The notes under the pieces: model-generated
Database searches by the model: none
The model's input: only the letters and a program-made list of their open reading frames with translations
Told to the model about the DNA's origin: nothing
DNA from: a virus
Lineage: Duplodnaviria > Heunggongvirae > Uroviricota > Caudoviricetes
Virus record (IMG/VR): IMGVR_UViG_3300042894_006602
Strand: one strand, 5' to 3'
Length of the DNA: 64,000 nt
Translations under genes and position numbers: made by a program
In this document: positions 3,513 to 52,516 of the stretch, piece after piece
Position numbering within the stretch: the first letter of the stretch is position 1
Layout: every line of letters begins with the position of its first letter

Positions 3513-3520
3513 TAAATATA

Positions 3521-3548
3521 ATCAACCTCTGGGAAACCGGTGGTTGAT
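3521..3548 (+). terminator. possible terminator hairpin (ATCAACC...GGTTGAT) without clear T-run
   Basis: A 7-bp inverted repeat immediately after the stop of the T9SS-CTD gene. There is no U-tract, so the call is weak. Confidence 0.3.
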
Positions 3549-3587
3549 TATCCAAAAACACAAAAACACAAAAAATAAAAGTAAACT

Positions 3588-3926: not shown

Positions 3927-3945
3927 TAAAAAATAAAAAATAGTT

Positions 3946-4314
3946 ATGAAATTAAAAAACTTTTTAAGCGCAAAAACAGAATATGTAAAAGTAGAAGACA
4001 AAAATAGATTCTATTATATGCTTCAACAAATGCAAGCAAACAGATGGAAAATTACAGCAATCGTATTAGGCCTTTTCTTTTTTATCATCTTAGGAATCAA
4101 CGCTGGAGTATTTATGGGAGCTACAATTAATGAAGATTGGAAAGAAATGTTACTAATTCTTTTAGGTGCCTTTGTTGGTAACTTAAATAAAGTAGTTGAC
4201 TATTGGTTTAACTCAGAAGATAGAGACAAAATGTTAATTCAGAAAGTTGACGAAGAAGATGGCGTTGCACTTTCAAATGTAGCAGATCCTTCTGGGGAAA
4301 GCGAAGTAGTTTAA
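3946..4314 (+). CDS. small membrane protein
   Basis: ORF with a central transmembrane segment (ITAIVLGLFFFIILGINAGVFMGA). Confidence 0.5.
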   Translation: MKLKNFLSAKTEYVKVEDKNRFYYMLQQMQANRWKITAIVLGLFFFIILGINAGVFMGATINEDWKEMLLILLGAFVGNLNKVVDYWFNSEDRDKMLIQKVDEEDGVALSNVADPSGESEVV

Positions 4315-4341
4315 CTACCAAAGATAAAATAATATAACATA

Positions 4342-11140: not shown

Positions 11141-11423
11141 GATCCCGTTTGGATTCGAACCAAAGACCTACTGCTTAGACATACCACTATAGTTTTCACT
11201 ACCATTTCTGTTTGTGGTCTGGACTATATCATCACCTTCAACATTACTTGTTAAGGTGCCTCCCCCTTAGTCTCTACACATTTCCTCATTTCTGAGGGTT
11301 AGCTCGGTATTACCATCACCTCGAAGTGTTAAGGCTTCACCGAATTCGAGAAGTTCTATTTAATCATTTCTGACTAAACGCCCCCTTTGAGGCAGTTGCT
11401 CTATCCAGCTGAGCTACGGGACC
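11140..11423 (-). tRNA. intron-containing tRNA gene, probably tRNA-Arg(UCU); exons 11390-11423 and 11140-11179
   Basis: Minus strand reads GGTCCCG-TA-GCTC-AGCTGGATA-GAGC-A-ACTGC-CT, then a 210-nt insert, then TCTAA-GCAGT-AGGTC-TTTGG-TTCGAAT-CCAAA-CGGGATC-A. Acceptor, D, anticodon and T stems all pair. The anticodon assignment depends on the inferred splice junction (after U33; omega-G at 11180). Confidence 0.6.
11180..11389 (-). other. group I intron (IC3-like) in tRNA anticodon loop
   Basis: The intron contains GAAUUCGGUGAAGCCUUAAC and GUGUAGAGACUAAGGGGGAGGCACC, close matches to the P4-P6 and P7/P3 strands of the Azoarcus tRNA-Ile and Anabaena tRNA-Leu introns (AAUUCGGCGAAACCUAAG / GUGUAGAGACUAGACGGCACC, recalled from memory). 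A short P1 forms between exon GCCU and intron GGGC. The terminal G precedes exon 2. There is no internal ORF. Confidence 0.75.
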
Positions 11424-11459
11424 CTTTATTTATAAGGCTTTCCGAAGATTACCTTTTTG

Positions 11460-11543
11460 TAGTCGAGGCGGGAGTCGAACCCGCACGGGCAAATGCCCAC
11501 AGGATTTTAAGTCCGGCGTGTCTACCTATTCCACCACTCGACC
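11460..11543 (-). tRNA. tRNA-Leu(UAA)
   Basis: Minus strand reads GGTCGAG..CTTAAAA..TGGGCATTTGCCCGT (long variable arm)..GCGGGTTCGACTCCCGC..CTCGACT-A. T-arm and acceptor pair cleanly. There is one C-U mismatch in the anticodon stem. Confidence 0.65.
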
Positions 11544-13899: not shown

Positions 13900-14850
13900 T
13901 TATTGTTTAATGTTTAAAAACGTTCCTGAGCCACCAGCAACTGTTGTTGGAAGTTTTCCATCCCAAGCATTCGCTTTCAAGTATTCGATATACAATGGAG
14001 AAAGTTCACTTTGTTTAATCTTAATAGCTTTTGCTGCTGCGTTCGCGTTAATCACAGTTTCTGCAGAATCTGCTCTTGCTACAGCTACCTTACGTCTTCC
14101 CTCAGAGATTGCTGCAATCGCTTGTTGTTCAGACGCTTCAGCTTGTTGAATTGCTTTTGTTTTTGCGATAATTGATTCTTGTAGTGTTTCCGGTGGTGTA
14201 ATATTAGTTCTTAACTGACTTACATTAAACCATTTAGATAGTCTCACATTACATTCTAAAACTATAGCTGATTCAAATGCTTGTCGGTGATTAAAGATAC
14301 TATCAACTTCCCAGGTATTTGCCACGTCATTAACTGCTCCAATAATAGCGTTTTTAAGCCAACCCTTTTCAACTTCATTAATAGGAAGTCTTAAGTTAAC
14401 AAACATATCACCAATAGCATCTTCTCTTAAAGAGTAGTTGAATGTTGGTTTAATCGTTGCTGAGAAACCACCTTTAAGAATTACACCTTGGTCTTCATAC
14501 TCAATGTGTTGTTGGTATGTTGGAAACTCCAATACTTGTTCAGTCCAAGTGTTATACAATACCCAACCTGTTTTGTATTGGTAAGAAGATACACCTCGTT
14601 GGTCACCAACTAAATTAATTTTTAATCCTTTGTGTCCGGCATCAACTTTTTCAATTGCGAATGGTTGTATCATTGATATTACAATACCGGCTACAAAAAT
14701 ACCAATAGGCTTAATTAGCCACGATGCGCTAAATTTTTCAACTTGGTTTCCATATCTATTTGTGCCTTTCACAAACATACTACCTCTTGTTTTAAGCGCG
14801 GTGAGGACTGCCGCAATTAAAAACACTACAAAAATTACTGTACTAATCAT
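13900..14850 (-). CDS. SPFH/band-7 (stomatin/HflK-like) membrane protein
   Basis: N-terminal TM helix followed by an SPFH-like core and an alanine-rich coiled-coil tail (AIQQAEASEQQAIAAISEGRRKVAVARADSAE...), as in the HflK/C and stomatin families. Confidence 0.65.
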   Translation of the reverse strand: MISTVIFVVFLIAAVLTALKTRGSMFVKGTNRYGNQVEKFSASWLIKPIGIFVAGIVISMIQPFAIEKVDAGHKGLKINLVGDQRGVSSYQYKTGWVLYNTWTEQVLEFPTYQQHIEYEDQGVILKGGFSATIKPTFNYSLREDAIGDMFVNLRLPINEVEKGWLKNAIIGAVNDVANTWEVDSIFNHRQAFESAIVLECNVRLSKWFNVSQLRTNITPPETLQESIIAKTKAIQQAEASEQQAIAAISEGRRKVAVARADSAETVINANAAAKAIKIKQSELSPLYIEYLKANAWDGKLPTTVAGGSGTFLNIKQ

Positions 14851-25624: not shown

Positions 25625-26800
25625 TTAAGATAACTTTGGAATATCATTCCAATCAGTTGTCCATTTTGGTGAAAGAAATTCTCTTCTTGTCATCCACATT
25701 TGACTTGATACCGTTGGTCTTTTTACTAATGGATAATCTTCTTGAAACAAAGTTTTAATATTGACATTTTCATCAATCAAGTCTAAAAAGATAACACCGG
25801 CTTTTGCCCAAAGTTTCATAGGTAGTTCTTCAAAATGTGGTGAAACTTCATTCCAAATTGATTGAACATCATTACTTGGAGTATAAAGTTTAATCTTTCT
25901 CGACCAAACAAAATAACCTTCTTCAAATCTATTAGTTGTACAAAATAAAACTATAGTTCTTCCTTTAATAGATTCTGATTTCATTTTACTACAAGCATCT
26001 TCAATAAATGTCCAGATAGCATCACTAACTTGTTCTTTTTGCCAAACAGTTCTTCCAAAACTTCTAGAAGAAGTAACAACTTTTGGTTTCTTAAACTTAG
26101 TTTCAATCTTATGGATTAACTCACCGTGTAGTTCAGACCAAGTTCTAAGACCAACAATAGTAAACATTTTTCTAACTTGATAAGCTTGAAGTTCTTTGAA
26201 TTGACCAATCTTGTCAACACCAATACTGTTGAGTTTCTTTCTCCATTTATTTCCAATTCCCCAAACTTCACTAATTTCAATATCGTCTATATCAGGTGAA
26301 TCAAAATAGGAACAAACACCTTTTTCCATCTTTTTTGCTTGATGGTTCATTAACTTTGCAATAGTTTTATTTGGAGCAACTCCAATTGAAACTGGAATTC
26401 CAGTAAGTCTTAAAACTTCAGAACGAATAAGGGTCATATAATTTATTAACTCACTATCATCAATATGAGTTAAGTCCATAAATGATTCATCAATTGAATA
26501 TATCTCAAGTTGTGTGGTAAATCTTTTAAGAATGTTTGATATTCTATCAGAAATGTCTCCGTAAAGTACATAGTTAGATGAGAACTTTACCATTTTTTCT
26601 TTAATCTCATCATCTAACTTAAAGACCGGTTGTCCCATTTTAACACCCATATCTTTAATCTCTTGACTTCTAGCAATAACACATCCGTCATTATTAGAAA
26701 GTACAACCGTTGGTGTAGATTTTAATTTAGGATTAAATAATCTTTCACACGAAACGTAAAAGTTATTACAATCGACTATTGCTATTTTTTTATTTGACAT
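25625..26800 (-). CDS. umuC: Y-family DNA polymerase (UmuC/DinB-like)
   Basis: Start taken at the internal Met (MSNKKIAIVDCNNFYVSCERLFNP). This matches the UmuC/DinB N-terminus, as does SLDE and the palm/finger layout. Confidence 0.8.
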   Translation of the reverse strand: MSNKKIAIVDCNNFYVSCERLFNPKLKSTPTVVLSNNDGCVIARSQEIKDMGVKMGQPVFKLDDEIKEKMVKFSSNYVLYGDISDRISNILKRFTTQLEIYSIDESFMDLTHIDDSELINYMTLIRSEVLRLTGIPVSIGVAPNKTIAKLMNHQAKKMEKGVCSYFDSPDIDDIEISEVWGIGNKWRKKLNSIGVDKIGQFKELQAYQVRKMFTIVGLRTWSELHGELIHKIETKFKKPKVVTSSRSFGRTVWQKEQVSDAIWTFIEDACSKMKSESIKGRTIVLFCTTNRFEEGYFVWSRKIKLYTPSNDVQSIWNEVSPHFEELPMKLWAKAGVIFLDLIDENVNIKTLFQEDYPLVKRPTVSSQMWMTRREFLSPKWTTDWNDIPKLS

Positions 26801-27102
26801 AATTTCCAAGTTATAGTTCCCCAAAGTTTTTCAGGGTCAATGTTTTTATATAAGTCTAGTGTTAATTTTTCATTACCATTTACAATTACTAAATCCTCTG
26901 GTTCAGGAGTTGACGCTCTATCAACAACAAGATAATCACCCCATTTTAGGTCAAACTTTTCTTCACCTTCCCATTGAAAAAAGAAAGTAGAATACGGGTC
27001 GTTAATTAGTAAATCATTAGGGTCTAATCGTTTTCCAACATAGGCTCTAGCAGGTGAGCCAAACCCAGTGGTTTTGGTATTAATTGTGAAATTATCTTGC
27101 AT
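26782..27102 (-). CDS. umuD: UmuD'-like S24 peptidase-fold protein, N-terminally pre-truncated, catalytic Ser absent
   Basis: Aligns with the E. coli UmuD C-terminal domain (FPSPA..LL..P..TF vs GFGSPARAY..LLINDPYSTFF). GDSM is replaced by GEEK. At 106 aa it is about the size of the processed UmuD'. Overlaps umuC by 19 nt. Confidence 0.6.
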   Translation of the reverse strand: MQDNFTINTKTTGFGSPARAYVGKRLDPNDLLINDPYSTFFFQWEGEEKFDLKWGDYLVVDRASTPEPEDLVIVNGNEKLTLDLYKNIDPEKLWGTITWKLCQIKK

Positions 27103-31138: not shown

Positions 31139-31627
31139 TTAAGTAGTTTCTTGAAAAAGAGATGCTAAAGACCAAGCAATAATTGATACTACTGCTCCTA
31201 CTAAAAATAATAATCCGTTGCTTGTTGCTAATCCTATAAAAGCCGCTACTGGTGCTCCGAAACAAAGTAGTAATGCAACTGATGCGCCTGAAATACGAGC
31301 TATTTTTTCTAATATTGTTTCACTTTCTTCTTCAACTGATTCGTTAACGATAGGTTGAATTTGTAATGGGTTTCCAACAAATGATTTAATCCAATTCCAT
31401 AGTTTCATTAATTCAGACTGACTTTGTTGTTTTAGTTTTTGTAAAGTTTCTTGCATCAATTCAGTGTTTTCTCCAATCCATTCCATAGCAGATTCAGCAC
31501 CTTCTTTAACTTCACCAGTTAATTTTGATATCCAACTTGATAGTTTCTCTTTTATCCATTCATAGGTTTTTTGAAACCAGTTTTCATTTACACCGTTAAA
31601 ATTCTCGTAAGTCTTAATATATTTCAT
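31139..31627 (-). CDS. N-tagged (MKYIKTYENF) protein with C-terminal TM helices
   Basis: Shares the N-terminal MK[YF][LI]K.[YF]EN[FY] motif with at least 10 other proteins in the window. Confidence 0.5.
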   Translation of the reverse strand: MKYIKTYENFNGVNENWFQKTYEWIKEKLSSWISKLTGEVKEGAESAMEWIGENTELMQETLQKLKQQSQSELMKLWNWIKSFVGNPLQIQPIVNESVEEESETILEKIARISGASVALLLCFGAPVAAFIGLATSNGLLFLVGAVVSIIAWSLASLFQETT

Positions 31628-31654
31628 TTGTTTAGAATTTTTTTTATTAAGATA

Positions 31655-32167
31655 TTACTCGAAAGATTCTTTGGTGAACTGCTTGTCAATACCAGGCAAC
31701 TCTTCCTTGAATTCTTTAGCCCATTTAGATTGGCCTAATAAGTATTTAATGAATTTATCTTGATGTTCTTCAGCAACATAACCAAAAATAACTTTGTCGC
31801 TGCTTGCTTTTCCGACTCTCACAAATTTATCTTTCTTTAGTTTGAAACACATCTCAACAGGTTGTTTCAATAATTCACTTTCTAACTTAAAAACCATTGA
31901 CGTGCTGTCAGCAAATAATTTACTGAAGAATCCCTTTTTCTCTTCGGCAAGAAATACTTCACAATCAACTAACTTACAATTATAACTACCCCATTTTGTC
32001 GCACTCATAGGAGTAACGAGTGCATCACAAAGGAATTCATCTGGTTTATCTGAAGCTTTTTCTTCTGTAGGTTTTTGTGACTTATACTGACCACCAGCTA
32101 TAGCACCCATTGATCCTGGTACCATTTCATTAATTTTATAGTTTTCGAATGTTTTAAGATATCTCAT
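31655..32167 (-). CDS. N-tagged (MRYLKTFENY) hypothetical protein
   Basis: Shares the same N-terminal motif. Confidence 0.5.
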   Translation of the reverse strand: MRYLKTFENYKINEMVPGSMGAIAGGQYKSQKPTEEKASDKPDEFLCDALVTPMSATKWGSYNCKLVDCEVFLAEEKKGFFSKLFADSTSMVFKLESELLKQPVEMCFKLKKDKFVRVGKASSDKVIFGYVAEEHQDKFIKYLLGQSKWAKEFKEELPGIDKQFTKESFE

Positions 32168-32260: not shown

Positions 32261-33220
32261 TTATTTAAAAAACTTTTCTAATTGTTTCATTAAATCCGGA
32301 TTATCAAATATTTCTTTTTGAACTTTATCAACTAAATATTTAGTAGTTTCTGGTCTTGAATCGGCCATATCAGTTTTTGTTTCATCATCAATTCTAATCT
32401 GAAGTCTTAAATGTTTTTTTAGTAATTGTTCACTTTGATAATCAACTGACATTGATGAAGCTTGCATCATAATAGTAGTGATTGGCTTTACCCATTCTAC
32501 CAATCCCCAACCTTCAGTTTTAACTCCTAAACTTTCAGCGTGAATACCTGTTCCTAAAGAAAGACATTCAATATCAGATAATCTAATATCACAGTTTTTA
32601 ATTACATCAGAAACAGCGGCTAAAACTGGATTGTTGATGTAAACACCACCATCGACTAACACTCTATCTTTGCCGTCATACTTCATTTCATATGAAGGTA
32701 GGTAAGTCGGTGCTGCTGAAGTAGCCCTACAAACATCTTTTAATTTAGCATCAAATCTTTGTTTAGACCATTTAGCATTTCTAGTCTTAAACATTATAAT
32801 CTCATTTGACTTTAGGTCATAAGAAGTTACAATAATAGGTTTTAGTGTATTTTTAAGTGTTAGATCACCAAAATATTGAGTTAAGAGTTTATCTAATCCT
32901 TCTGGTGAATACTTAGGATTGAAAACTGATTTAACACCTTTTGACCACTTTTGAAATATATTTTTTGGTTGTGGAAAAATAGTATCTCCTTCTGTTGTAT
33001 ATAATTTATAAAGTGTGTCTAAATCTAAGTGTGTTGTTTTACCATTTTTAGTTGCTGTTAGACCAGCTGCGATAATACCACCGGTAGAAGTTCCAACAAT
33101 ACAGTCGAATAACTCATAGATTTTTTTACCAGTAATTTCTTCAATTTTTTTTAAGATTAACACTGGAATAATTCCTCTTAATCCACCACCGTCAAGTGAT
33201 AATATTCTATACTTTGCCAT
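32261..33220 (-). CDS. patatin-like phospholipase
   Basis: DGGGLRG oxyanion motif, GTSTGG (GxSxG nucleophile) and the downstream DGG catalytic Asp motif. Confidence 0.8.
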   Translation of the reverse strand: MAKYRILSLDGGGLRGIIPVLILKKIEEITGKKIYELFDCIVGTSTGGIIAAGLTATKNGKTTHLDLDTLYKLYTTEGDTIFPQPKNIFQKWSKGVKSVFNPKYSPEGLDKLLTQYFGDLTLKNTLKPIIVTSYDLKSNEIIMFKTRNAKWSKQRFDAKLKDVCRATSAAPTYLPSYEMKYDGKDRVLVDGGVYINNPVLAAVSDVIKNCDIRLSDIECLSLGTGIHAESLGVKTEGWGLVEWVKPITTIMMQASSMSVDYQSEQLLKKHLRLQIRIDDETKTDMADSRPETTKYLVDKVQKEIFDNPDLMKQLEKFFK

Positions 33221-39635: not shown

Positions 39636-40463
39636 ATGAAAATCATTTTATTTATAGCCACATTAAGTTTACTTTTAGGTTGTGCAAAGTCAAATTTACC
39701 CGAATCTGATTCCGATGTTAGTTTAAATAATATCAATAATATAGATTCATTGAAGAGTAATCAGAAGATTTTAGATACTATGGTAATCCAAGAGGAACTT
39801 ATAGTTGTACAAGAGCTAAAAAGAATACCGATGGATGAAAACAAAAGTACTGTGGATGAAGTAAAGATAATTGAGAAACACGAAAAGAAAACTCAATTAA
39901 AAGTTGTTGATAGAACTTCTAAAAATTCCGATGTAAATAAAGGTTGGATTGCTTATTCAGTTCCAGAAGAAATGAAAGTTGAAAAGAGTTTTTCAGTTAA
40001 AGTTAGAATATCTAAGAAAAGCGGTCAATCAAAAGCTGAATTGATTTTAGGCAATGATGATGCTATAAACAATCCAGACTATCCATCAATTGCTATGATT
40101 GAAGATGTTAAAGTGTCTGGTGAGATGTCTGCTGAATTGAGAGGTGATTTAGATGCTTTCAAAATCGTGTGTCTTTCTACACCAACACAAAATATAGATG
40201 ATGAAAGTTATACTGAGTGGGATTGGATTGTAACACCTAAAAAAGGTGGTCAAAATCATTTAAAATTGGTTGTTAAGTTAAAAGACTTAAATAAAGATAT
40301 CATAGTTTTTAATAGAAACATAAATGTAAAGTCTAATGTGCCGGTTGTTGTCAAAGGTTTTTTTGAAAAATACTGGCAATGGCTTATGACAACTATAATT
40401 ATTCCAGTATTTATATACTTCTGGAATAAGAAGAAGAAAAAGAGACAAACAAAAAAGAGTTAG
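39636..40463 (+). CDS. lipoprotein with C-terminal TM anchor and poly-Lys tail
   Basis: Signal peptide with an LLGCAKS lipobox, a C-terminal TM helix and KKKKRQTKKS. Confidence 0.5.
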   Translation: MKIILFIATLSLLLGCAKSNLPESDSDVSLNNINNIDSLKSNQKILDTMVIQEELIVVQELKRIPMDENKSTVDEVKIIEKHEKKTQLKVVDRTSKNSDVNKGWIAYSVPEEMKVEKSFSVKVRISKKSGQSKAELILGNDDAINNPDYPSIAMIEDVKVSGEMSAELRGDLDAFKIVCLSTPTQNIDDESYTEWDWIVTPKKGGQNHLKLVVKLKDLNKDIIVFNRNINVKSNVPVVVKGFFEKYWQWLMTTIIIPVFIYFWNKKKKKRQTKKS

Positions 40464-40486
40464 AAAAATCTAACTCTTTTTTTTTA
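40452..40486. terminator. bidirectional terminator (AGAGTTAGAAAAATCTAACTCT + T9)
   Basis: Hairpin overlapping the stop codon of the 39636-40463 gene, between convergent genes. Confidence 0.65.
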
Positions 40487-40761: not shown

Positions 40762-41505
40762 CTATTTTTTATTTAATTTTTTTGCTATTTCGGTTTCTGA
40801 TAATCTTGGTAATTCCTCAGTGATTGGATATTTAGTTAAGATAGCAAATTTTTCACCATCATCCATATAAGTAACATCTAAATAGTATCCAGCACACTTA
40901 ATCTTCATTCTGGTATCAGAAATCTCAACTGGAATTATCTCAGAAGTTTGTGGTAAATCGAATGATTTAATATTTCTGATAAATCCCCAGTTGTCATTCT
41001 TATAAAATTCTGCCTTCAAAAGTTGTAAAAAACTTGAATCTTTTTTTAATAACTCATTTTTTCTAATACCATGAACATCTTTAAATTTGAAGCCAAGTGT
41101 TATGTGAAAGTCAAAAGGTTTTAATCCGAATCTGTTTCTTATAGCGTTTAATTTTTCAGATTTACAAACTATAAAATAACATCTATTTTCATTCTGAAAT
41201 GCGGTTCCGATACCTAACATTTTCAAATCATCAATCTCATAATGAAATATTGGTTCGAGTGAATTAATGAATTTGTCAATACCCAAATCTTTTGAAAGTT
41301 GATTGTAATCCATTACATTAATAACGGTTAGATGATATTTGCCACCATCACGTTGCTTTTGTAAATCAGTGAATATTTTGAAATCATCTTCGCCAATAAT
41401 AGACTCCAATTCATTCAAATAAGGCTCAACAATGTCATGTGGTATATCTAAACCCAAATAATTGTTAGCCACGCGGTCTTTTAAATAAGAAACATAATAA
41501 ATCAT
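40762..41505 (-). CDS. 2H phosphoesterase superfamily protein (LigT/CPDase-like)
   Basis: Two H-x-T-x motifs (GKYHLTVIN and FDFHITLGF) at the spacing typical of 2',3'-cyclic phosphodiesterase / 2'-5' RNA ligase folds. Confidence 0.6.
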   Translation of the reverse strand: MIYYVSYLKDRVANNYLGLDIPHDIVEPYLNELESIIGEDDFKIFTDLQKQRDGGKYHLTVINVMDYNQLSKDLGIDKFINSLEPIFHYEIDDLKMLGIGTAFQNENRCYFIVCKSEKLNAIRNRFGLKPFDFHITLGFKFKDVHGIRKNELLKKDSSFLQLLKAEFYKNDNWGFIRNIKSFDLPQTSEIIPVEISDTRMKIKCAGYYLDVTYMDDGEKFAILTKYPITEELPRLSETEIAKKLNKK

Positions 41506-41524
41506 AAGTGTATATATTCAGAAA

Positions 41525-42697
41525 TTATAAAAGATTTTTGAAATTTTCTATTTCTCTCTTTTTAATTTCAATTCCTAAATCTCTACCCTTAAAACCCTGA
41601 GACATAAGCTCTTCAGCCGATGTGATTGGTTTATACTCAACGAATTTAATTTTGACATTATCATTAATGCCCAATGCTTTATACCATTCAATTATAGTAT
41701 TATCATCAATGTGACACTGAAGTTTAGATTTATACATATCAAAAGCCAACTCAGGAGTTAATTGTAATAATCTAATTAAGAAAACCACTTTTGTTGATAC
41801 TTCTGATTCTATTTTATAATCTTGAACCAATTTCTTTTCTAATCCATCCGTACTTTCATTCTTAAATAGATTAGCAATAACTACAACAAAATCTTTACTA
41901 TCAACTAATTCAGTATTGATATCAGAATCCGGAAATACTTCAGACCACATATCAAACTTAGTAAAGAAGTTCAAATAGTTTCTATAATCTTTTGCTTGTT
42001 TCCAAGCTTTCTTCATTTCTTCCCAGACTCTTTCTTGAGAAATTCTTTTCATTTCACCAGTTTCAGGTTCTATATTTTCTAATTGTTTTCTTTTTTCAAT
42101 TGCCTTCTCAGTGTCTACATGAAGTGGATGTCCATATCTCGAAGCAAAACGAAATGCTCTTAAAATTCTTAAACTATCTTCGTCAAACCTTTCTATAGGA
42201 TCACCAACCATTTGAGTTATACCTTTTTCTAAGTGCTCACGACCTCCAGTCAAATCAACAATCTCTTTATTATCTAAGTCATAGAAAAGTGCGTTATAAG
42301 TCAAATCTCTTCTTTTAACATCATCTTCAATAGTAACTCCTAATTTAACTTCAGGGTTTCTTCCTTTACTAACATCTTCTCTGAATGTAGCAATTTCCAT
42401 TCCCTCTGGTTGATCATCGGTGAATACAACTACAACTCCAAATGCTTTACCCTGTAAGTTAGTCTTATAATCTTTTCCGATGATTTCTAATACCTCATCT
42501 GGGAGAGCGTCAGTTGCTAAGTCAAAGTCTTTTGGTTTATCTCCAGTGAGGAAGTCTCTAACGGCACCTCCGACGACATACAATTTTTTTCCTTTTGATT
42601 TGAAAAGTAATTGCAATTCTTTAACCGATTGTGGAATTATATTCCACATATCTGAACTTTGTGATTCTAAAAACTGTTGATATTTTTTAATTTTCAT
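41525..42697 (-). CDS. cca: tRNA nucleotidyltransferase (CCA-adding enzyme / poly(A) polymerase head-domain family), N-tagged (MKIKKYQQFLES)
   Basis: LYVVGGAVRDFLTG..PKDFDLAT (the GG..RD..DxD nucleotidyltransferase core), RDLTYNALFYD and DPIERFDEDSLRILRAFRFASRYG match class II CCA enzymes. Confidence 0.8.
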   Translation of the reverse strand: MKIKKYQQFLESQSSDMWNIIPQSVKELQLLFKSKGKKLYVVGGAVRDFLTGDKPKDFDLATDALPDEVLEIIGKDYKTNLQGKAFGVVVVFTDDQPEGMEIATFREDVSKGRNPEVKLGVTIEDDVKRRDLTYNALFYDLDNKEIVDLTGGREHLEKGITQMVGDPIERFDEDSLRILRAFRFASRYGHPLHVDTEKAIEKRKQLENIEPETGEMKRISQERVWEEMKKAWKQAKDYRNYLNFFTKFDMWSEVFPDSDINTELVDSKDFVVVIANLFKNESTDGLEKKLVQDYKIESEVSTKVVFLIRLLQLTPELAFDMYKSKLQCHIDDNTIIEWYKALGINDNVKIKFVEYKPITSAEELMSQGFKGRDLGIEIKKREIENFKNLL

Positions 42698-42713: not shown

Positions 42714-44009
42714 TTAATCTCTATATAATGAATTTAATCTCACCACTCTAAGTTTATCAATAAAATCTTCCAACTCTGACAATTCAACTGGTCTTTCTTC
42801 ATGTTCACACCAAGTTTCGATTATATCTTCTTTAAAGTCTTTACCATTTGGTTGTATATAATCAATGTCACCTTCAAAAAGATCAACTAATAAATTTCTA
42901 AACTTAATAGCTTCTCTTCTGTTTGAGAAATAAACTTCACTAAACTCAGATCCTTCAATCGATACAACTCCTGTAGACACCATAGGTAGTTTTACACCAT
43001 CTTCATCTTTGCAGTTTTGATTGGTCAGATTGATATAAACATCTTGTAACCAAATTATACCATTATTTGAGTTTGTATAACCTCTGATATCACCACCAAC
43101 ATACCAATCTAAAACTTCTAAATCTTCTTCTGAAACTGGATGAACTCCAAACATAAACTGTGGCCAAAGTGAATTTCTATCAAGATCTAACCATTCTGGT
43201 AGCATCTCACTTAGGTAATAGTCAGAATTAAAATACAATTGTATATAACAATTTGCGAATTTAATTTCACTTCCCAGACCCATAACGGTACCACCACCCT
43301 TAACAAATCTTAGTTGAAATTGACCTAATTTTTTTGCTTCTTCTAAAGCCATCTTGTGTTTAGCATCCTTTTCTCTTTGTCTAACAACCTCTGCCCAAGC
43401 TCTTAGTTGTTCAGGTCTTTTAATATGACCTAAACTTTTTAATTTATCAGCCGCACTTATGTATGTTCTTGGATCAAGATCTTCATTTGTTGAAAGGTGT
43501 CCTCTCGTTCTATCTACAAAAATTTTTTCCTTAGTGAATGAAATCTCAAATGTCCATTTATTAACTCTATCAAAAGTCGTTGGATCATATACTGGTGAGT
43601 TTATAATTTGAGGTCTTCTTTGGTATTCTTTTTCAATAGACTTGACACCAAATGTTTCAGGATCTGTTGTCCAATGATAACCTTTAATTTTCTGGTTAAT
43701 TGTGAATCCATCTTCTGATTCTTCAAAGTTTTCATCTTCTACACAAGTAAAGTGTTCTATTTCAAATCCCTCTCCACTTAAATAAGACCAAATAGATTCA
43801 ATTGGTATTTTTATATCACTATATGTGAATTCTTTATTCCTACTCACAGAAACTTTAACTCTTTCTTTTTGTGAATGATAATCTATCTCAGAAACATTAG
43901 TTTGAAACTCATCATCCCTTAATTCAATAAGCAAGTCTTCAACTGTTGATTTCAATTCTGATTTCAATCTAACACCGACAGCTTCTTCATATCTTTTTAA
44001 ATACTTCAT
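42714..44009 (-). CDS. paralog family member A (431 aa; N-tag MKYLKRYEEA, C-term SLYRD)
   Basis: Part of a 4-gene tandem array with overlapping stop/start codons. Confidence 0.55.
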   Translation of the reverse strand: MKYLKRYEEAVGVRLKSELKSTVEDLLIELRDDEFQTNVSEIDYHSQKERVKVSVSRNKEFTYSDIKIPIESIWSYLSGEGFEIEHFTCVEDENFEESEDGFTINQKIKGYHWTTDPETFGVKSIEKEYQRRPQIINSPVYDPTTFDRVNKWTFEISFTKEKIFVDRTRGHLSTNEDLDPRTYISAADKLKSLGHIKRPEQLRAWAEVVRQREKDAKHKMALEEAKKLGQFQLRFVKGGGTVMGLGSEIKFANCYIQLYFNSDYYLSEMLPEWLDLDRNSLWPQFMFGVHPVSEEDLEVLDWYVGGDIRGYTNSNNGIIWLQDVYINLTNQNCKDEDGVKLPMVSTGVVSIEGSEFSEVYFSNRREAIKFRNLLVDLFEGDIDYIQPNGKDFKEDIIETWCEHEERPVELSELEDFIDKLRVVRLNSLYRD

Positions 44010-44012
44010 CTT

Positions 44013-44870
44013 TTAATCTCTATATAAACCATTTACTGACATTCTCTTAGCAGCATCAACAGCTCCTTTATAAGTATCTTCACCAAAAGGATTTTTTGGC
44101 CAGGTATCTGGATCTGTTAAATCATATTCATCCTCTCTACCATTTAAGTAATGGTCCATCAGTTTTTTTCTCCACCCCTCTTCATCTAAACTAAGTGTTG
44201 ATTTTAATTGTTCTGCAATTGTTCTTTCACCATAAGTACCCCAATTTGATTTTCCTTCTAATGTATTAGATAACAAGTTTTTAAATTTCATAGCATCTGA
44301 TCTATAGTTAAAGTGGAAAGTAAATCCATCTCTATCTTCAAATCCACCAAGTCCACATGTATAAGAAGGAACTCCGCCTTTACCAAAAAGAGTAAGCCAC
44401 AATCTATTAGTCCAGTATCTATAGTCACCCCACATAGAGTTATTTCTAAAATACTCAATGTCTTTATTTTCGCTTGTTTCAAGCATTTTAAGCGTTTCAT
44501 CATCAGCTGGTATAATGGCAAATTCCATAGCAATTCCCATTGACCAATCCATACCTTCGTCTAACCAATCATGTAACTGGTCTTTAAACCAATCAGATTC
44601 TAAACACATTTGTAGATAAAATTTACCAGAAAATATATCTTTCTTATTTGATCCATAACCTCTTGCCACTGTAATATCAAATAAACCAAACTCTTTATTT
44701 TCACTTTGAGCTTGTAATAACTTTTGAGATTTCTCTTTTAATTCAACTTGAGTTGCATAATCTAATAATTCCGCACCTCTTCTTTTGTGACCCATCTGAG
44801 TGAATTTTTCACCTGCTTTTTTGTAAGTAGATGCTTTTAACTCTTCATTAAATCTTTTTAAATATCTCAT
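44013..44870 (-). CDS. paralog family member B (285 aa; N-tag MRYLKRFNEEL, C-term NGLYRD)
   Basis: The N-terminal 40 aa are alignable with members C and D (..TY..AG.K....GH..R...L). Confidence 0.55.
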   Translation of the reverse strand: MRYLKRFNEELKASTYKKAGEKFTQMGHKRRGAELLDYATQVELKEKSQKLLQAQSENKEFGLFDITVARGYGSNKKDIFSGKFYLQMCLESDWFKDQLHDWLDEGMDWSMGIAMEFAIIPADDETLKMLETSENKDIEYFRNNSMWGDYRYWTNRLWLTLFGKGGVPSYTCGLGGFEDRDGFTFHFNYRSDAMKFKNLLSNTLEGKSNWGTYGERTIAEQLKSTLSLDEEGWRKKLMDHYLNGREDEYDLTDPDTWPKNPFGEDTYKGAVDAAKRMSVNGLYRD

Positions 44871-45592
44871 AGTGTTGAAGAAAGTAAATTTGGACTAATT
44901 GTTCTCATGTATTCAGCAGCATCTTCTAATTTAAATCCATAATCAGAAGAGAATGAATTCTCAGCTAAGATACAATTTGTTAATTTTTCATATAAGTCAT
45001 CAGCATCCGTATAACCAGAAGGATACCCTAATTGCGGATTACTAAATATTTGAATAAGTAAATTTTTGAACTTGTTAGCGGACCCTCTATCAGCAAAATT
45101 GATTTTACCATTCATATCTTCATCATAGTCCCACATATTCCACTTAGTAAATCTAACAGTATCTCCTAATTCATATTCTAAATTAAAGATTTTACCCCAG
45201 AAAAATCCATTTCCAAAGTCATAGTCTGGACAAAGTTCCATATACTGATAGATTAAATCTTCAGATGTTGGAATTAAACCTATAAAAAAAGTAATACCAC
45301 TTTCTGGTTCATCACCAAATGCCAAATCATCAAAGTTAACATCTAAATGAAAATCACCAGTTAATGTACTTCCGGTCTCTGGATTTTTTATAGTCATCTT
45401 AAATGTTCCGAATTGAGCATAATCTTGAATTCGGTCTTGCCACTTAATCATCTCTTCTTTTTTCTCAGTTTCTTTAGCCCAGTCTTTTAAAGCATTTGCT
45501 CTATCATGATGACCTAATTTATCAAGTTTTCTAGCAGCAGACATATAAGTCTGTGGTCTTAATTCTTCGTTAAACTTTTTTAAATACTTCAT
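44867..45592 (-). CDS. paralog family member C (241 aa; N-tag MKYLKKFNEEL)
   Basis: 4-nt overlaps (ATGA) with both neighbours. Confidence 0.55.
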   Translation of the reverse strand: MKYLKKFNEELRPQTYMSAARKLDKLGHHDRANALKDWAKETEKKEEMIKWQDRIQDYAQFGTFKMTIKNPETGSTLTGDFHLDVNFDDLAFGDEPESGITFFIGLIPTSEDLIYQYMELCPDYDFGNGFFWGKIFNLEYELGDTVRFTKWNMWDYDEDMNGKINFADRGSANKFKNLLIQIFSNPQLGYPSGYTDADDLYEKLTNCILAENSFSSDYGFKLEDAAEYMRTISPNLLSSTL

Positions 45593-46491
45593 AAACTTAT
45601 TTCTTTTTCATACCATCTACTACGAATCCAATCACCAGATCCACCACGAGTTGGTAAATCATCATCATAAAGACCTTGAATTTTTATTTTTGTAAAAGCA
45701 TCAACAGCTTTTTCTATGTTTTCTGATTTACCACCAACAATTCTTAAAACATTCATAATAGCATCTTTGATATCATCTAAGTGATTAGTGATAAGCCAGT
45801 TTTTAAATTTAACTGCTGATTTTCTGTCACTGAAAATACCATATTGATTATCATTAGGAGATTTTATGATTACATTATAACATGCAGACCAATTATAAAA
45901 TTCCGTCAAAGTAGTTGGAGTAAATTCTTCACCATCGCGAAGAAGTCCATTTTCAGCATCCCATCTAGCATCAGCATCCCAATCATTTAAACCACTATAC
46001 CATTCACTTAAGTCTATTTGTAAGTTAAAGGCTTTTACTTCTTTAGCAGTAGGATTATTAGCATTCCAACAAAAATTTGAGCTTCTATTACTTTTTTCTA
46101 TAGTTTCTCTTGTAGCCTTAAAGGAAAACTCAAAACTTATATTAAGTCCATCTTGACCCAATTTCCACCTTTCAACTAAATCTTCTGCTAACATTTCTGG
46201 ATCTTTTCCATATGACATTCCATTAAATCCTTTAAATTCATCTTTGTATTTTGTTGGAGTTGAAGCATAATAAATACCCGTCAATCTAGGTTGAGTAAAT
46301 GATGATTCTTTTGCTATAAAGACTGGATTATTATTTGCCCATGTCATATTATAAAAACCAAACTCTCTTTCATCAGCAAAATCATGTAGTAAAGAAGCTT
46401 GACTAGTCTTATTATAATAATCTAATTTACTACCAGCACTTCTGTAAGTCTTAGGATTTAACTCTTCGTTGAATTTCTTGATAAACTTCAT
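45589..46491 (-). CDS. paralog family member D (300 aa; N-tag MKFIKKFNEEL, C-terminal IQGLYDDD)
   Basis: Same N-terminal architecture as members A-C. Confidence 0.55.
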   Translation of the reverse strand: MKFIKKFNEELNPKTYRSAGSKLDYYNKTSQASLLHDFADEREFGFYNMTWANNNPVFIAKESSFTQPRLTGIYYASTPTKYKDEFKGFNGMSYGKDPEMLAEDLVERWKLGQDGLNISFEFSFKATRETIEKSNRSSNFCWNANNPTAKEVKAFNLQIDLSEWYSGLNDWDADARWDAENGLLRDGEEFTPTTLTEFYNWSACYNVIIKSPNDNQYGIFSDRKSAVKFKNWLITNHLDDIKDAIMNVLRIVGGKSENIEKAVDAFTKIKIQGLYDDDLPTRGGSGDWIRSRWYEKEISL

Positions 46492-46781: not shown

Positions 46782-47275
46782 TCAATTAAGTTTCTTAATT
46801 TTATATCTCTTAATATAGGTTTCGTTTTTTCATTTACTAAATGAGTTATTTCATTTTCGCTTCTATAATTCATACCAGTTAAATCATAAGTGCTGTATTG
46901 ATAACCACCCAATATATCTTTCATTATTTGAAGGTGTGTTTCTTCAGTTCTCCAGAAATTTTTTAGCGGAAAAGGTATCCACATATCAATGTTATTAGAT
47001 TGACAGTAACCAATTAGGTCTTTAAATTTATAGGTGTCTTCTTTATAGATATCAACATGAAATAACATTAGATTTTTACCATCAAGTTTTTCTAAATCGA
47101 TTTTATCAGGATGATTACATCCAAATTTAGTCCAGATATAAGGTTCCGATACTTGGTGTCTATAAAGTAACATACATTCTGGAAGACTATAGAATATTTG
47201 ATAACAAGCTCGAGCGGCTACATTCCAAGCGAGCTTGTATTCAATACTCATATCCATTTCTAAAACATTAATCAT
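46778..47275 (-). CDS. hypothetical protein (165 aa)
   Basis: ORF overlapping the next gene by 8 nt. Confidence 0.45.
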   Translation of the reverse strand: MINVLEMDMSIEYKLAWNVAARACYQIFYSLPECMLLYRHQVSEPYIWTKFGCNHPDKIDLEKLDGKNLMLFHVDIYKEDTYKFKDLIGYCQSNNIDMWIPFPLKNFWRTEETHLQIMKDILGGYQYSTYDLTGMNYRSENEITHLVNEKTKPILRDIKLRNLID

Positions 47276-47834
47276 TTAAGAACTTAATAATTTTTTCTTT
47301 TATCCCAGATTGTTTAATACCAATATATTGTTTAGTCATAACAAAATTGGATAATCCACCATTTGAATTACCAGAAACCGGTCCAAACTTTTCACCTAAA
47401 TCCATATCATCAACAGCAACCCAATTAGTAACTTCTGGATGTTGGTCTAACCAAGTTTTAATTTCCTTAATTCTCCACTCCTCTAACTCACTTTGTGTGA
47501 ATTGGGATTTAGACTGATAACTTACTAAATTAGGAGTAACATCAATTGGTGATTTGATAACATCATATTTATCAAACATATCTTGAAGTTCTTCAAGTGT
47601 AGCAAACAACTTCCAATCTGAACTAACAACAATCTCAACATCATAATGTAACAAAATCGAATTGAGAGTTTTAGTTGCTTTAAAATCAAAGTTGTCTAAC
47701 TTAATCCAAGCCGGCATATCATCTTCAGATGAACCAGGAAATTCTTTTTTAAACTTAATCATTTTTTTAGCACGACCACCCCACTGCTCAGCGAGACACA
47801 TCACACCATCGAAATCTAAAAATATTACTTTCAT
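47268..47834 (-). CDS. HAD-like hydrolase
   Basis: N-terminal MKVIFLDFDGVM (DxDGV motif I) and VVSSDW. Confidence 0.5.
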   Translation of the reverse strand: MKVIFLDFDGVMCLAEQWGGRAKKMIKFKKEFPGSSEDDMPAWIKLDNFDFKATKTLNSILLHYDVEIVVSSDWKLFATLEELQDMFDKYDVIKSPIDVTPNLVSYQSKSQFTQSELEEWRIKEIKTWLDQHPEVTNWVAVDDMDLGEKFGPVSGNSNGGLSNFVMTKQYIGIKQSGIKEKIIKFLND

Positions 47835-48727: not shown

Positions 48728-49285
48728 ATGAAGTATCTTAAAAAGTTTAGACTATTTGAAAAAAGTGCCAGTTCTTTAGTATCTGAACAAATTGATTTAG
48801 TGGAATTAGAGAATATTCTAATTGACTTTGAACAAATGGGTTTAGACTATGATATTAAAGCTGGATCATCTATTGTAATAGATTGGAATTTATTTAACGA
48901 TGATAAAACTGGTGGTACAAAATGTTTACACTCAAGAGAAATTGATAAATACACAAAATCATCTGGTAATTCATTAACAATAGAATTCAATACATCAGAA
49001 CCACATACTTATAATATAAACGAAACATCAGAAGCTTATGAAATGTTAAAGCATTATCTTTTTGATAATTATAATCTAATTCCAAACTATATCTATATTA
49101 ATAGTCATTGGAATTATATGTACTTTGAGGACTTTGATAAGATAAAAGAAATAGAAGTTACTGATAATTGGCAGTTCTCAAATCCGAGCCTTCCATTAAG
49201 ACCAGAAAATACATTTAAAGCACACAAATTAGTTTTTGGATTTTATTTAGATCCTAACGCAGTTTTCAGAGGACCTGAGTTCTAA
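48728..49285 (+). CDS. N-tagged ([13 protein letters not shown]) hypothetical protein
   Basis: Shared N-terminal motif. Confidence 0.5.
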
Positions 49286-50979
49286 CTACACTCCGGACAA
49301 TCGTGACGTCCATTTCCATCACAATCATAACATTCTCTTTCACCGTCACCATCACAATCACCACACTCTACTCGACCATCACCATCACAGTTTCTACAAT
49401 CGTAATTTCCATCACCATCACATTTGTAGCATTCTTTTCTACCATTACCATCACAGTCTAAGCATTCTTGTTTTCCACTTCCAGAGCAGTTTCCACACTC
49501 TTCTCCGTCTATTTCACCATCACCATCACAATCATCACAATCTACTTTACCATCTCCATTACAAGGATCACAGTATAAATCACCAGCACCATCACAGATA
49601 TGACATAGTTCTTTACCACTTCCATCACAATCATCACAGTCTACATTTCCTCTACCATCACACTCGTAACATTCTCTAGTTCCATCACCATCACAGCTTC
49701 CACATTCAACTCTACCATTTCCGCCACACTCAGAACAAGATCCGTTTCCACCTTCTGTGTCAGTAAGTTCATATTCGTAATCAAAGTTTGATGAATTGTA
49801 AAGCATTCCTTTTCTTGGATTATAATACTTAAATGAATCCATATAAGGATAGTGAGCATACTCACCACCATTATCTAATTCAACAGAGAATTCACCTTGT
49901 CTTTTTTCAACAGTTCCGTCTTCTTTATGAAACTCAAAGTCAGTATATTCACTAAAGTCTTGTCTTGATTTAAACCAATATTTGTTTGCAATGGCCCACT
50001 CTTTAAATAGTTGTTCATCAGCAGTTCTGATACTATAAATTCTTTCCATAACATTTGTCGACAACTCATAAGGTTCCATTTCCCAAAGAATAGCTCTTCC
50101 ACAAATCTTATCTGGATTACTCTCTGACATTAATAACAGAAGTTTACATTGACTATTATCTGTATAAATACTTAAATAGTTTTGACATCTATCATAGCGC
50201 ATACAAGAGCTTCCTAAACTTCCGGATTCTTCTTCATACATACTTCTATGATAGTATTTTTTGATATCTTTTCCTTCTACAACTTTAAATCTTGTATTTA
50301 GAACGTCTTTTAATTTTTCAATCTCAGCACGATACTTATAAACAAAGTCTTCAATTTCAGCGTCTTTGAATTTAACACCGGATTTTGTAAGAAGTGCTCT
50401 AACAAATCTACCAACCGAAACTTCAGAACTACGAACAGCACTTGGGCCATCATTAACTGCAGCTTTATTTATAAGTATTTGATGTTTTTTTCCATTCTTA
50501 ACCCATTGAAAAATAACTAATGGATTTCCTGTTATAAATGAGTATTCAAAATTAGATTTGTATTCAGGAAGAAGTGAACTTATCTCTTGTAAAGTGTAAA
50601 TTTTTACAACTTGACCAACTGTGTCGTTTTCTGGAACAATAAATTCCGACTCCTCGTATTTATCAACTCCACTTCCTTCTATTTTACTTAATTGATACGT
50701 GATTTGTGGATAAATTCCATTTTGACTTATGACCTTACCTGTCTTACCAACTTTATCATCTGGTTTGAAGAAAAGTGTATCAGTTTTTTCTTTATTAATA
50801 TCAATATAGTTTTGGTTGATATCAACTTCTTTACCTTCAATATCAAACAAATGAGTTGATATTGGCGAGTCAATTTTTTTTAGAACAGAAACAAAATCTT
50901 TAGAAAAGTCTATGTTTGCTTCTAATAGCAAAAAAAGGTTAGACTCTGTAATAAAATCGTCATATTTGAATAACTTCAT
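49282..50979 (-). CDS. N-tagged ([14 protein letters not shown]) protein with about 16 tandem DnaJ-type CxxCxGxG zinc-finger repeats at C-terminus
   Basis: The C-terminal 150 aa read [45 protein letters not shown]..., regular C-x2-C-x-G-x-G units. Confidence 0.65.
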
Positions 50980-51004: not shown

Positions 51005-51047
51005 CTAAAAATAAAAAAGTCTCAGATTTCTCTGAGACTTTTTTTAC
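51005..51047. terminator. bidirectional terminator (GTCTCAGATTTCTCTGAGAC + T7)
   Basis: Perfect hairpin with the same core as the terminator at 37601-37618. Confidence 0.75.
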
Positions 51048-52516
51048 TTTTCATTTCCCTCAATAGTAATTTGTTTCACCTTACCATTAGTTCTTGAAAT
51101 GGGACACTTAACACCAACTGAGATAATCAAAACCTTACCTTTTACTTTTGAAAAATCAAGAGTGTCGGTATAACCATCCGTCAACAATACACTATTACAA
51201 TCGTTGTGATGTTCTACAATGTAGTCAATCATTGGTTGTAAGCAAGTTCCTCCCAATCCTTTAATCGGAATACTTTCAAGTTGTCTTTTACTTTTGATAT
51301 TTTCAACCCAGTTCACTTGTGTATCACTTTCCATGAAATTTATTTCAATATCATTTCGATAAACATAAGAAAGAACTCTCTCAAATGTTCCCTGACCACC
51401 CATTGAACCAGAAGTATCAAGTCCAACATTAATCTTAGTTTTCACCTTACGAGCTCCTTTCAATCCAGAGATACCTTTACGATTAGGCTTAACAATAGTT
51501 CTTTCTTTAACGGTTCCGAAAATCATATTAGAAACTGCTCTTTTGATTTCACGAAGATAATCTTTACGTTTCTTACGAAGTTTGTTCAATGTTTGTTCAA
51601 CATTACCAGCAGAAAGACCACGAGCCGCCAATCGCTCCATAACATCTTTAACCATCGCATCTCTCAATTCTTCTGGAACATCATCACCAATATGTTTATC
51701 AAGATATTCACCGCTACCGTTTTCCATATCTTGGAAGATTTGCTCTTTTGACCATGTGTCGAGTGATTCACCATCTTTTGATGGATTTTTTCCATAAGGC
51801 CCATAAGAAGGCTTTCCAGTAGAGTCTTTACCACCTTCGTTTCCGGTACCATCGCAATCAGGACACTTTTCATCTTGAGGTTGACCATCACCACTACCAG
51901 TGCCAGAACCTTTTTCATCTTTTTTATCACCTTTGCCTTCACCATCAGATTTTTGGCCATCACCTTTGTTATCAGATTTCTTACCAGATCCGTTACAAGA
52001 TTGACATTGTGAGTTTTGTTTTTGCTCTTTTTGCCATTTATCTTTTTCATCTTTTAGCCACTCATACAATTCTTCAAAGATAAGTTTTCCTGTATATTCT
52101 TTTGGAACAAAAAGAGCCATATTCTTACCATCAGAAGATTTTGGAATTTCAACAAACGCATGTGGAATATCCTCCCAAATAACGTGGTTAATAATCATAT
52201 CCTGTGCAATGTTTGACAATTTGTGGTCGTATTGACCAGTAATTGTTCTACGAGGGTGGTTAAAAAGAAGGTGAAAATCTTCGTGTAGAGTGATAAAATT
52301 CACTTCTTTTTGAGACATGTTTTCTAAAAACTTTGGTGAGTAGTAGAAGTTCATGCCCTTTGAGGTTACGTTTACTGCACAAGTTCCGATAGAATCTTGC
52401 TCGTGGAAACTGACGTGTAGGTTAAACTCACCGTAATAAGGAAGATTGATTTTAGTATCAATCAACATTGTTTGGATACCGTTGAGTAATTTTTCGTGGA
52501 TGTTCTTAATTATCAT
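51044..52516 (-). CDS. putative metallopeptidase (HExxH) fused to VWA domain (DUF2201-like architecture) with Gly/Asp/Lys-rich CxxC linker
   Basis: LHEDFHLLFNHP (HExxH). MIDAS-type GLDTSGSMGG. The central low-complexity linker contains CQSC and CPDC. Confidence 0.6.
   Translation of the reverse strand: MIIKNIHEKLLNGIQTMLIDTKINLPYYGEFNLHVSFHEQDSIGTCAVNVTSKGMNFYYSPKFLENMSQKEVNFITLHEDFHLLFNHPRRTITGQYDHKLSNIAQDMIINHVIWEDIPHAFVEIPKSSDGKNMALFVPKEYTGKLIFEELYEWLKDEKDKWQKEQKQNSQCQSCNGSGKKSDNKGDGQKSDGEGKGDKKDEKGSGTGSGDGQPQDEKCPDCDGTGNEGGKDSTGKPSYGPYGKNPSKDGESLDTWSKEQIFQDMENGSGEYLDKHIGDDVPEELRDAMVKDVMERLAARGLSAGNVEQTLNKLRKKRKDYLREIKRAVSNMIFGTVKERTIVKPNRKGISGLKGARKVKTKINVGLDTSGSMGGQGTFERVLSYVYRNDIEINFMESDTQVNWVENIKSKRQLESIPIKGLGGTCLQPMIDYIVEHHNDCNSVLLTDGYTDTLDFSKVKGKVLIISVGVKCPISRTNGKVKQITIEGNEK

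Follow-up and report, generated by a model that had tools for sequence, protein, structure and literature searches.

A CCA-type nucleotidyltransferase gene and a 2H phosphoesterase gene are kept together in huge phages, suggesting a joint role at tRNA 3' ends

Damaged tRNA ends are made usable again by several described systems. In phage T4, Pnkp and Rnl1 counter PrrC: a HAD phosphatase and a kinase heal the tRNA 2',3'-cyclic phosphate end for reuse, and the ligase seals the internal break. Such cyclic phosphates are the mark of metal-independent RNases and of self-cleaving RNAs. In Escherichia coli, the multifunctional Cca protein combines a nucleotidyltransferase head with an HD domain that has 2',3'-cyclic phosphodiesterase, 2'-nucleotidase and phosphatase activities, so that one protein both unblocks a phosphorylated or cyclic tRNA 3' end and adds CCA. 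HD-less CCA-adding enzymes are found in Bacillus, Geobacillus, Planococcus and human. In the human stress response, the cut by which angiogenin removes the CCA tail leaves a cyclic phosphate; for repair, treatment with polynucleotide kinase (PNK) preceded the use of the CCA-adding enzyme (PMC3757041). In huge phages, CCA-adding enzymes have been surveyed (PMC7162821), and the RNA-repair parts of jumbo phages, among them CCA-adding enzymes, 2H proteins and SAK-type HAD phosphatases, have been catalogued (PMC7824862). Here we describe a gene for a CCA-type nucleotidyltransferase and an adjacent gene for a 2H phosphoesterase on a 64-kb stretch of phage DNA (IMG/VR record IMGVR_UViG_3300042894_006602; hereafter the window), which is the part of this phage genome covered by the analysis. 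The pair is conserved in related phages, and fusions of CCA-type enzymes with other 2H domains occur elsewhere.

The locus has the following features:

41525..42697, minus strand: nucleotidyltransferase open reading frame (ORF), 390 amino acids (aa)
40762..41505, minus strand: 2H phosphoesterase ORF, 247 aa
40484..40753, minus strand: conserved acidic protein, 89 aa, with an N-terminal YYSLDE(C/A) motif and an Asp/Glu/Tyr-rich tail ending in Y
40451..40482, minus strand: terminator-like hairpin ending the co-directional block, a 14-bp stem followed by a T-run

The nucleotidyltransferase gene is the upstream one and lies head-to-tail with the 2H gene, with a gap of 19 nt; the acidic ORF follows after 8 nt. 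An earlier reading of the letters alone (the sequence-only reading) had placed the first two genes in this arrangement, and its ORFs were exact. The identical public contig JGI 3300042890 gave the same genes in an independent gene call. The hairpin starts directly after the stop codon of the acidic ORF (RNA fold of -20.9 kcal/mol, z=-4.6). With the two short gaps and a hairpin after the third gene, the layout of the three genes is operon-like.

The nucleotidyltransferase contains the Pfam PolyA_pol head domain (E=2.9e-30, 105.7 bits, cut-off 23) and matches PHROG 2244, 'tRNA nucleotidyltransferase' (E=1.9e-58); 506 phage records and this PHROG give the family that name. The top NCBIfam model is the Bacillus-type CCA equivalog PRK13299, which aligns to residues 33-368. 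Among proteins of solved structure, the window protein is closest to CCA-adding enzymes (6ibp, 1miv and the human one), and the E. coli poly(A) polymerase comes shortly after them (E~1e-26). Motif A is present as GGAVRD (43-48) and DFD (57-59), of which G43, G44, R47, D48, D57 and D59 are invariant in 20 relatives. Motif B (RRDLTYN, 129-135), motif D (EDSLRILRAFRF, 173-184) and motif E (ERVWEE, 222-227) align to 6ibp and are invariant in the same relatives, in line with the clear CCA-enzyme motifs noted in the sequence-only reading. The flexible loop between motifs A and B is required for addition of A76 and is absent from CC-adding enzymes. The window protein has a loop, REDVSKGRNPEVKLG, between the two motifs, in which RNP aligns to RRP of 6ibp and which is three residues shorter than in 6ibp.

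No HD domain was found in the nucleotidyltransferase by Pfam, and its alignment to NCBIfam NF008137, titled 'multifunctional CCA addition/repair protein', covers only model positions 2-211 of 409. The sequence-only reading had counted an HD-less enzyme as a sign against a tRNA function. This does not hold, since Bacillus- and human-type CCA-adding enzymes lack the HD domain and the closest solved relatives are such enzymes. The window protein resembles these HD-less enzymes (1miv, 6ibp, 4x4w) in its motifs A to E and in their length of about 390-420 aa; it differs in that the alignments (E 5e-30 to 1e-26) span head and neck only, in staying under the equivalog cut-offs, and in its phage origin and its link to a 2H gene. 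We are largely, though not fully, confident in assigning the protein to the class II, HD-less, Bacillus-type nucleotidyltransferases of the CCA-adding type. Its specificity for CCA is judged from the motifs, the full-length coverage and the context, because its score lies under the NCBIfam CCA cut-off and is almost matched by that of the PcnB model.

The 2H protein matches Pfam 2H-SAK (PF22547) over residues 47-145 (E=5.3e-20, 72.4 bits, cut-off 27). Its two motifs, H58-L-T60 and H134-I-T136, show no change in 44 close relatives; both are kept in 22 of 25 distant relatives and are lost jointly in the remaining three. The description as a two-HxTx 2H phosphoesterase thus stands, the second motif being intact. 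The protein has the 2H alpha+beta fold. The 2H-SAK domain (aa 1-150) is followed by a separate alpha/beta domain of a helix and four strands (aa ~155-247), for which no informative relative was found. Among viral models, the top Foldseek match was 'Swiss Army Knife 2H' (E=8e-7), and Acb1 followed at E=0.087; when the sequences of solved structures were searched with the 2H profile, nothing came up at E<=10. An exhaustive search gave 779 relatives, in a long form of ~245 aa and a short form of ~150 aa, and no close relatives were found in bacterial genomes. Fused members of the family combine a P-loop kinase, a PNKP-type HAD domain and 2H, a kinase and 2H, or 2H and HAD.

By its Pfam score and fold, the 2H protein falls within the 'Swiss Army Knife' (SAK) 2H family of RNA-repair proteins and apart from Acb1. 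It shares with the SAK proteins (PF22547, HAD_SAK_1/2) the kinase and HAD fusions of distant members and a nearby HAD_SAK_2 gene. It differs from them in its novel C-terminal domain and in its partner, which is a CCA-type nucleotidyltransferase and not a kinase, phosphatase or ligase. An identity as an Acb1-like anti-CBASS phosphodiesterase was also considered, Acb1 being a phage 2H fold with two HxT motifs. It was rejected, as there was no Pfam Acb1 match at E<=1 and the Acb1 fold match was weaker than that to the RNA-acting 2H proteins. For both genes, the E-values and the number of database homologues (575 to 5,637 for the two proteins) exclude a chance pattern. The acidic protein had no Pfam, PHROG or PDB match; across its family, the tail is made up of Asp, Glu and aromatic residues and ends in D-Y. 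It is possibly a mimic of nucleic acid or of a tRNA end.

To study the linkage of these genes, we compared 27 non-identical viral loci anchored on the CCA gene, with nucleotidyltransferase identities of 42-86%. The 2H-SAK gene was found downstream on the same strand, 0-3.5 kb away, in 26 of them, and the acidic protein directly after the 2H gene in 23. In the sole exception (L058, with L013), some 50 kb separate the two genes, which still share one 281-kb contig. Genes inserted between CCA and 2H, 1.3-3.5 kb in length (for instance in LR745206 and LR756502), never altered order or strand. The downstream neighbours in the window are kept in only one or two of the 27 loci, and the upstream genes, which belong to a paralogous family, in 9-14. 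As the three genes are kept while the flanking genes are mostly lost, the conserved unit is a trio in a variable neighbourhood. The check proposed in the sequence-only reading, whether related genomes keep the two genes linked, was therefore answered positively; its two-gene module stands as a conserved pair, with the correction that the unit includes the acidic protein. When the loci were anchored on the 2H gene, a nucleotidyltransferase gene lay upstream on the same strand in 19 of 25 distinct long-form loci. The lowest identities at which the pair was kept were 36% for the 2H protein and 38% for the CCA enzyme, on a 597-kb contig (L032).

Two independent fusions with other 2H families add to this linkage. 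In a sister clade with 39-43% CCA identity no 2H-SAK gene is nearby, and the frame of the CCA enzyme runs on into a domain of ~125 aa, in which about 50 residues separate an HHMT(I/V) motif from a PH(I/V)T motif. This fusion of a CCA enzyme to a small 2H domain (mini-2H) was found in four distinct sequences (L102, L119/120, L124-128 and L130), the one in L124 spanning 5938-7467; in L103 the mini-2H has a gene of its own, which overlaps the stop codon of the CCA gene. The fused domain matches Pfam tRNA_lig_CPD (24.1 bits, cut-off 23, E=2.9e-5) in three of the four members. This family (PF08302) is the cyclic phosphodiesterase domain of fungal and plant tRNA ligases, a 2H enzyme acting on tRNA ends with a 2',3'-cyclic phosphate (tRNA>p). 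The 2H-SAK protein of the window is not detectably related to it by profile, and the domain works in Trl1 with a kinase and a ligase. Because the profile-profile comparison of mini-2H with 2H-SAK (hhalign) was not significant (probability 0.3), we treat them as independent 2H families. In another phage, a LigT-type 2H domain (aa 1899-2021) and, right behind it, a CCA-type nucleotidyltransferase (aa 2115-2483) are parts of a polyvalent protein of 2,490 aa, and 2 kb downstream there is a stand-alone mini-2H gene with a HAD_SAK_1 gene directly after it. By sequence comparison, three non-homologous 2H families thus adjoin or are fused to CCA-type nucleotidyltransferases, and this is the strongest argument that the CCA and 2H enzymes would share a substrate. 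Taken with the conserved linkage, a functional coupling of the two predicted enzymes is well supported.

The mini-2H is mostly a stand-alone protein of ~127 aa with 1,037 relatives. It is present in cultured Bacteroides crAss-like and DAC19-type phages, where the CCA gene is not adjacent; in the C-terminal part of the large DAC19 protein that was examined, no CCA domain was found. In the Bacteroides phage PhiCrAssBcn1 (L145 4998-7936), a stand-alone mini-2H gene lies ~1 kb upstream of a TROVE (Ro60-like) gene, which is a further setting of the RNA-repair type, here in a phage that grows in culture.

Other variants of the two genes were also seen. On distant viral contigs (L078/L079 4684-7212 and L084 5104-7167), a GNAT acetyltransferase domain precedes the CCA-type nucleotidyltransferase in-frame, giving ORFs of 843 and 688 aa. 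In L010/L011 (7473-8036) and L028/L029 (7893-8474), only the N-terminal half of the CCA enzyme (residues 3-187) was detected, with ~1.5-2 kb between it and the downstream 2H gene; a split, an interruption or a truncation of the CCA gene may account for this. Two relatives of the 2H protein, P0257 and P0214, have 2H-SAK joined to other domains, a Cap15 cyclic-dinucleotide receptor and a radical SAM domain, which suggests roles outside RNA end healing for some members.

The window has its own tRNA genes, as the sequence-only reading had stated:

11459..11543, minus strand: tRNA-Leu(UAA), found by ARAGORN, Rfam 55.4 bits; discriminator A followed by CAA
11140..11423, minus strand: tRNA-Arg(UCU) with a group I intron inside it (Rfam Intron_gpI at 11198..11399, 67.4 bits)

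The split tRNA-Arg(UCU) was missed by ARAGORN; its exons were read by eye, which places the intron at 11180..11389 in the anticodon loop, after U33. In both tRNAs the discriminator is followed by CAA and not by CCA. Relatives carry the same pair of Leu and Arg(tct) tRNA genes with the intron absent. CCA is encoded by very few of the ~100 tRNA genes counted in the related loci, and tRNA arrays adjoin the CCA genes of the sister clade. Since the tRNA genes lack an encoded CCA, the CCA enzyme is needed for maturation of the phage tRNAs in any case, and the window tRNAs are likely to be among its substrates. This simpler role had not been considered when the gene pair was first read as an end-repair module. 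Amber-suppressor tRNAs, with the anticodon CUA, occur commonly in the related loci (L006, L010, L065, L100, L112, L117 and L118). They suggest TAG recoding in part of the clade; the window ORFs are normal under the standard code.

We read the locus as a single expression unit whose three products, the CCA enzyme, the 2H enzyme and the acidic protein, would maintain functional tRNA 3' ends while the phage infects its host, and we hold this to be somewhat likelier true than false. The nucleotidyltransferase would add or restore C74-C75-A76, a step that would be obligatory for the phage's own CCA-less tRNAs, and it could also repair any tRNA with a partly lost tail. The 2H partner makes sense if some tRNA 3' ends arrive blocked. 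In that case the 2H enzyme would act first and open the 2',3'-cyclic phosphate of the blocked end (tRNA>p), so that a 3'-OH could become available. The remaining monophosphate would probably be removed by a phosphatase, and the CCA would be rebuilt last, in a ligase-independent 'heal and extend' of the acceptor end. A candidate for the phosphatase step is encoded nearby:

47268..47834, minus strand: HAD_SAK_2 phosphatase (Pfam PF18143, E=1.5e-24, 87 bits, cut-off 27.5) with the DxD motif FLDFDGV

This gene is 5.7 kb from the 2H gene. We consider it as a possible second-step enzyme because the product of such 2H enzymes still carries a monophosphate.

The nearest parallel to the proposed activities is the E. 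coli Cca. Both would unblock a phosphorylated or cyclic end and add CCA at the tRNA 3' end, and the nucleotidyltransferase heads are homologous. They differ in that the window enzyme is HD-less and the phage phosphoesterase has an unrelated 2H fold and is encoded by a separate gene, or elsewhere forms a fused C- or N-terminal domain. The phage pair may thus be a functional analogue of the HD and nucleotidyltransferase parts of Cca, with 2H in place of HD. With T4 the likeness lies in the logic of a phage counter-measure that heals a cyclic phosphate end for reuse; there a ligase seals an internal break, whereas here the nucleotidyltransferase would extend the acceptor end only. A Pfam scan of the called ORFs of the window, from 70 aa upwards and except for the low-complexity pair at 4342..6896, found no RNA ligase, RtcB or PNK. 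Repair after anticodon nucleases of the PrrC, RloC or colicin E5 kind, as proposed in the sequence-only reading, needs a ligase and a 5' kinase and is not supported, because neither was found among the scanned ORFs of the 64 kb. What stands of that tRNA-repair proposal is damage at the 3' acceptor end, since cuts in the anticodon loop are not mendable by CCA addition and a 2H enzyme. The human case differs in being a eukaryotic stress response whose healing enzyme is not genetically linked to the CCA enzyme. The claim of a solution different from that of T4 holds for the use of nucleotidyltransferase extension with no ligase; the novelty is smaller than had been thought, as the parts were already listed (PMC7824862) and E. 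coli Cca is a precedent. No description of a CCA-2H operon or of CCA::2H fusions was found in the searchable literature; the parts are known and their pairing is hardly described.

Several observations weigh against this reading. The PRK13299 score of 155 bits is under the curated cut-off of 290 bits, so that the protein is not called a CCA equivalog by this model, and the PcnB subfamily model gives a similar 148 bits, on residues 33-277 only. Six long-form 2H loci have no CCA gene within 10 kb, none of 11 short-form 2H-SAK loci has an adjacent CCA gene, and most of the distant CCA genes have no 2H gene nearby; the pairing is therefore recurrent and not universal. The linkage inside one phage clade could partly be inherited synteny. 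A HAD_SAK gene lies within 10 kb of the CCA-2H pair in only 4 of the 27 loci, which is a loose linkage. LigT- and CPD-type 2H enzymes leave a 2'-phosphate, which bears on whether a class II CCA enzyme could extend the product. No damaging nuclease or ribozyme that would make the blocked ends was identified. Self-cleaving RNAs near the tRNAs were considered as a source of cyclic phosphates and were not supported by Rfam, which in the window and 10 related loci matched only tRNAs and one group I intron, though theta ribozymes may lie outside Rfam. In the paper on theta ribozymes, the gene for the tRNA adenylyltransferase (CCA-adding enzyme) is 250-fold enriched in ribozyme-carrying phages, and cyclic phosphate is not mentioned. 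Lastly, the ligase-less 2H domains of phages have been noted as unexplained, and roles as RNase or in anti-signalling have been suggested for them (PMC5512222).

In a different view of the locus, the CCA enzyme only matures the phage tRNAs and its neighbour is unrelated. The 2H protein would then be a counter-defence phosphodiesterase on host immune signals (cyclic oligonucleotides, 2'-5' oligoadenylate or 2',3'-cNMPs), like Acb1 or the viral 2'-5' phosphodiesterases, and the adjacency would reflect shared expression timing. We regard this as unlikely, although it deserves serious attention: CCA-less tRNAs alone would account for the CCA enzyme, but three 2H families beside or fused to CCA-type enzymes are hard to explain without shared substrates, the Acb1 comparisons point away from such a protein, and the other fusions of 2H-SAK are to RNA end-healing kinase and phosphatase domains. 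Those same fusions point to end-healing when the 2H protein is instead taken as a Usb1-like 3' exoribonuclease or RNase, which would remove aberrant 3' extensions or trailers, for example nucleotides added by MenT/AbiEii-type toxin nucleotidyltransferases, before CCA is resynthesised. The end produced by trimming of the Usb1 type carries a cyclic or 3' phosphate, which would block CCA addition again, and no sequence feature distinguishes trimming from cyclic phosphodiesterase activity. We consider this explanation improbable.

An enzyme pair that does not act on tRNA at all, with a poly(A) polymerase or other RNA-tailing enzyme and the 2H protein remodelling the 3' ends of mRNA or small RNA for decay or stabilisation, would be favoured by the nearly equal PcnB and CCA scores and by the E. 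coli poly(A) polymerase among the solved relatives. A grouping with poly(A) polymerases had been named beforehand as a result that would count against the repair module, and the outcome was mixed, the top solved relatives being CCA-adding enzymes while the two model scores are close. The longer span of the CCA model, the A-B loop with RNP aligned to RRP of a solved CCA-adding enzyme, the phage annotations as tRNA nucleotidyltransferase and the tRNA arrays beside sister-clade genes all argue for tRNA, and we think such a non-tRNA role highly improbable. Least probable of all, in our judgement, is a gene order inherited without functional coupling, in a young clade or as a frozen order. Every linked locus does come from one huge-phage lineage and no relatives were found in bacterial genomes, but the flanks are not conserved while the trio is, insertions do not break order or strand, and fusions with non-homologous 2H domains arose independently elsewhere.

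A bolder form of the heal-and-extend proposal is that the trio serves as a dedicated ligase-independent counter-defence against unrecognised immune nucleases of Bacteroidota, which would clip tRNA CCA ends and leave cyclic phosphates, with the acidic protein as a tRNA-end mimic or nuclease decoy. This is speculative, and we would not expect it to be true. Neither the trio nor the HAD gene matched a defence system in PADLOC. If this bolder reading were true, the same logic would account for the many 2H domains that occur 'ligase-less' in phages and in polyvalent proteins, and would supply the end-healing step for phage tRNAs released by self-cleaving RNAs. Phage CCA-adding enzymes are common, as the 506 records indicate, and whether they serve maturation or repair has never been settled. 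For the ligase-less 2H domains, so far given speculative roles, the recurrent CCA-2H pairing offers a concrete and testable answer. Heal-and-extend of the acceptor end would be a second route of tRNA repair beside the heal-and-seal of T4, and on this proposal the hosts of these phages should be found to attack tRNA 3' ends. The natural CCA::2H fusions may also be of use as compact enzymes for making or repairing tRNA ends in vitro.

The G+C content of the window is about 30%. Its closest GenBank relatives are the uncultured huge phages LR745206 (634-kb) and LR756502 (642-kb), which belong to the Mahaphage clade with Bacteroidetes as predicted hosts (PMC7162821). From this relationship the window is placed with the Mahaphage-type huge phages of Bacteroidota. 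The host prediction agrees with a secreted protein (1608..3512, plus strand) that carries a cohesin domain and a C-terminal sorting domain of the type IX secretion system (T9SS), which hints at a Bacteroidota host.

Directly upstream of the CCA gene there are four tandem members of a paralogous family with the N-terminus MKYLK(K/R)FNEEL (42714..46491, minus strand). Similar N-termini are found at 31139..32167 (minus strand) and 48728..49285 (plus strand). Most members share a ...FKNLL... motif, the family has no Pfam or PHROG match, and its paralogs flank the CCA gene in relatives too. Further genes of the window are the following:

32261..33220, minus strand: patatin-like phospholipase, matching PADLOC models of CBASS-type phospholipase effectors (E=9.6e-72)
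13900..14850, minus strand: SPFH/Band-7 protein, a few kb from the tRNA genes
49282..50979, minus strand: protein with a long run of CxxCxGxG zinc-finger-like repeats
51044..52516, minus strand: DUF2201 metallopeptidase/VWA protein
25625..27102, minus strand: Y-family (ImpB/UmuC-like) DNA polymerase, with a small ORF (26782..27102) overlapping its 5' end

The SPFH/Band-7 domain has been proposed as a scaffold for RNA repair. The CxxCxGxG-repeat gene and the neighbouring DUF2201 gene are both conserved in LR756502.

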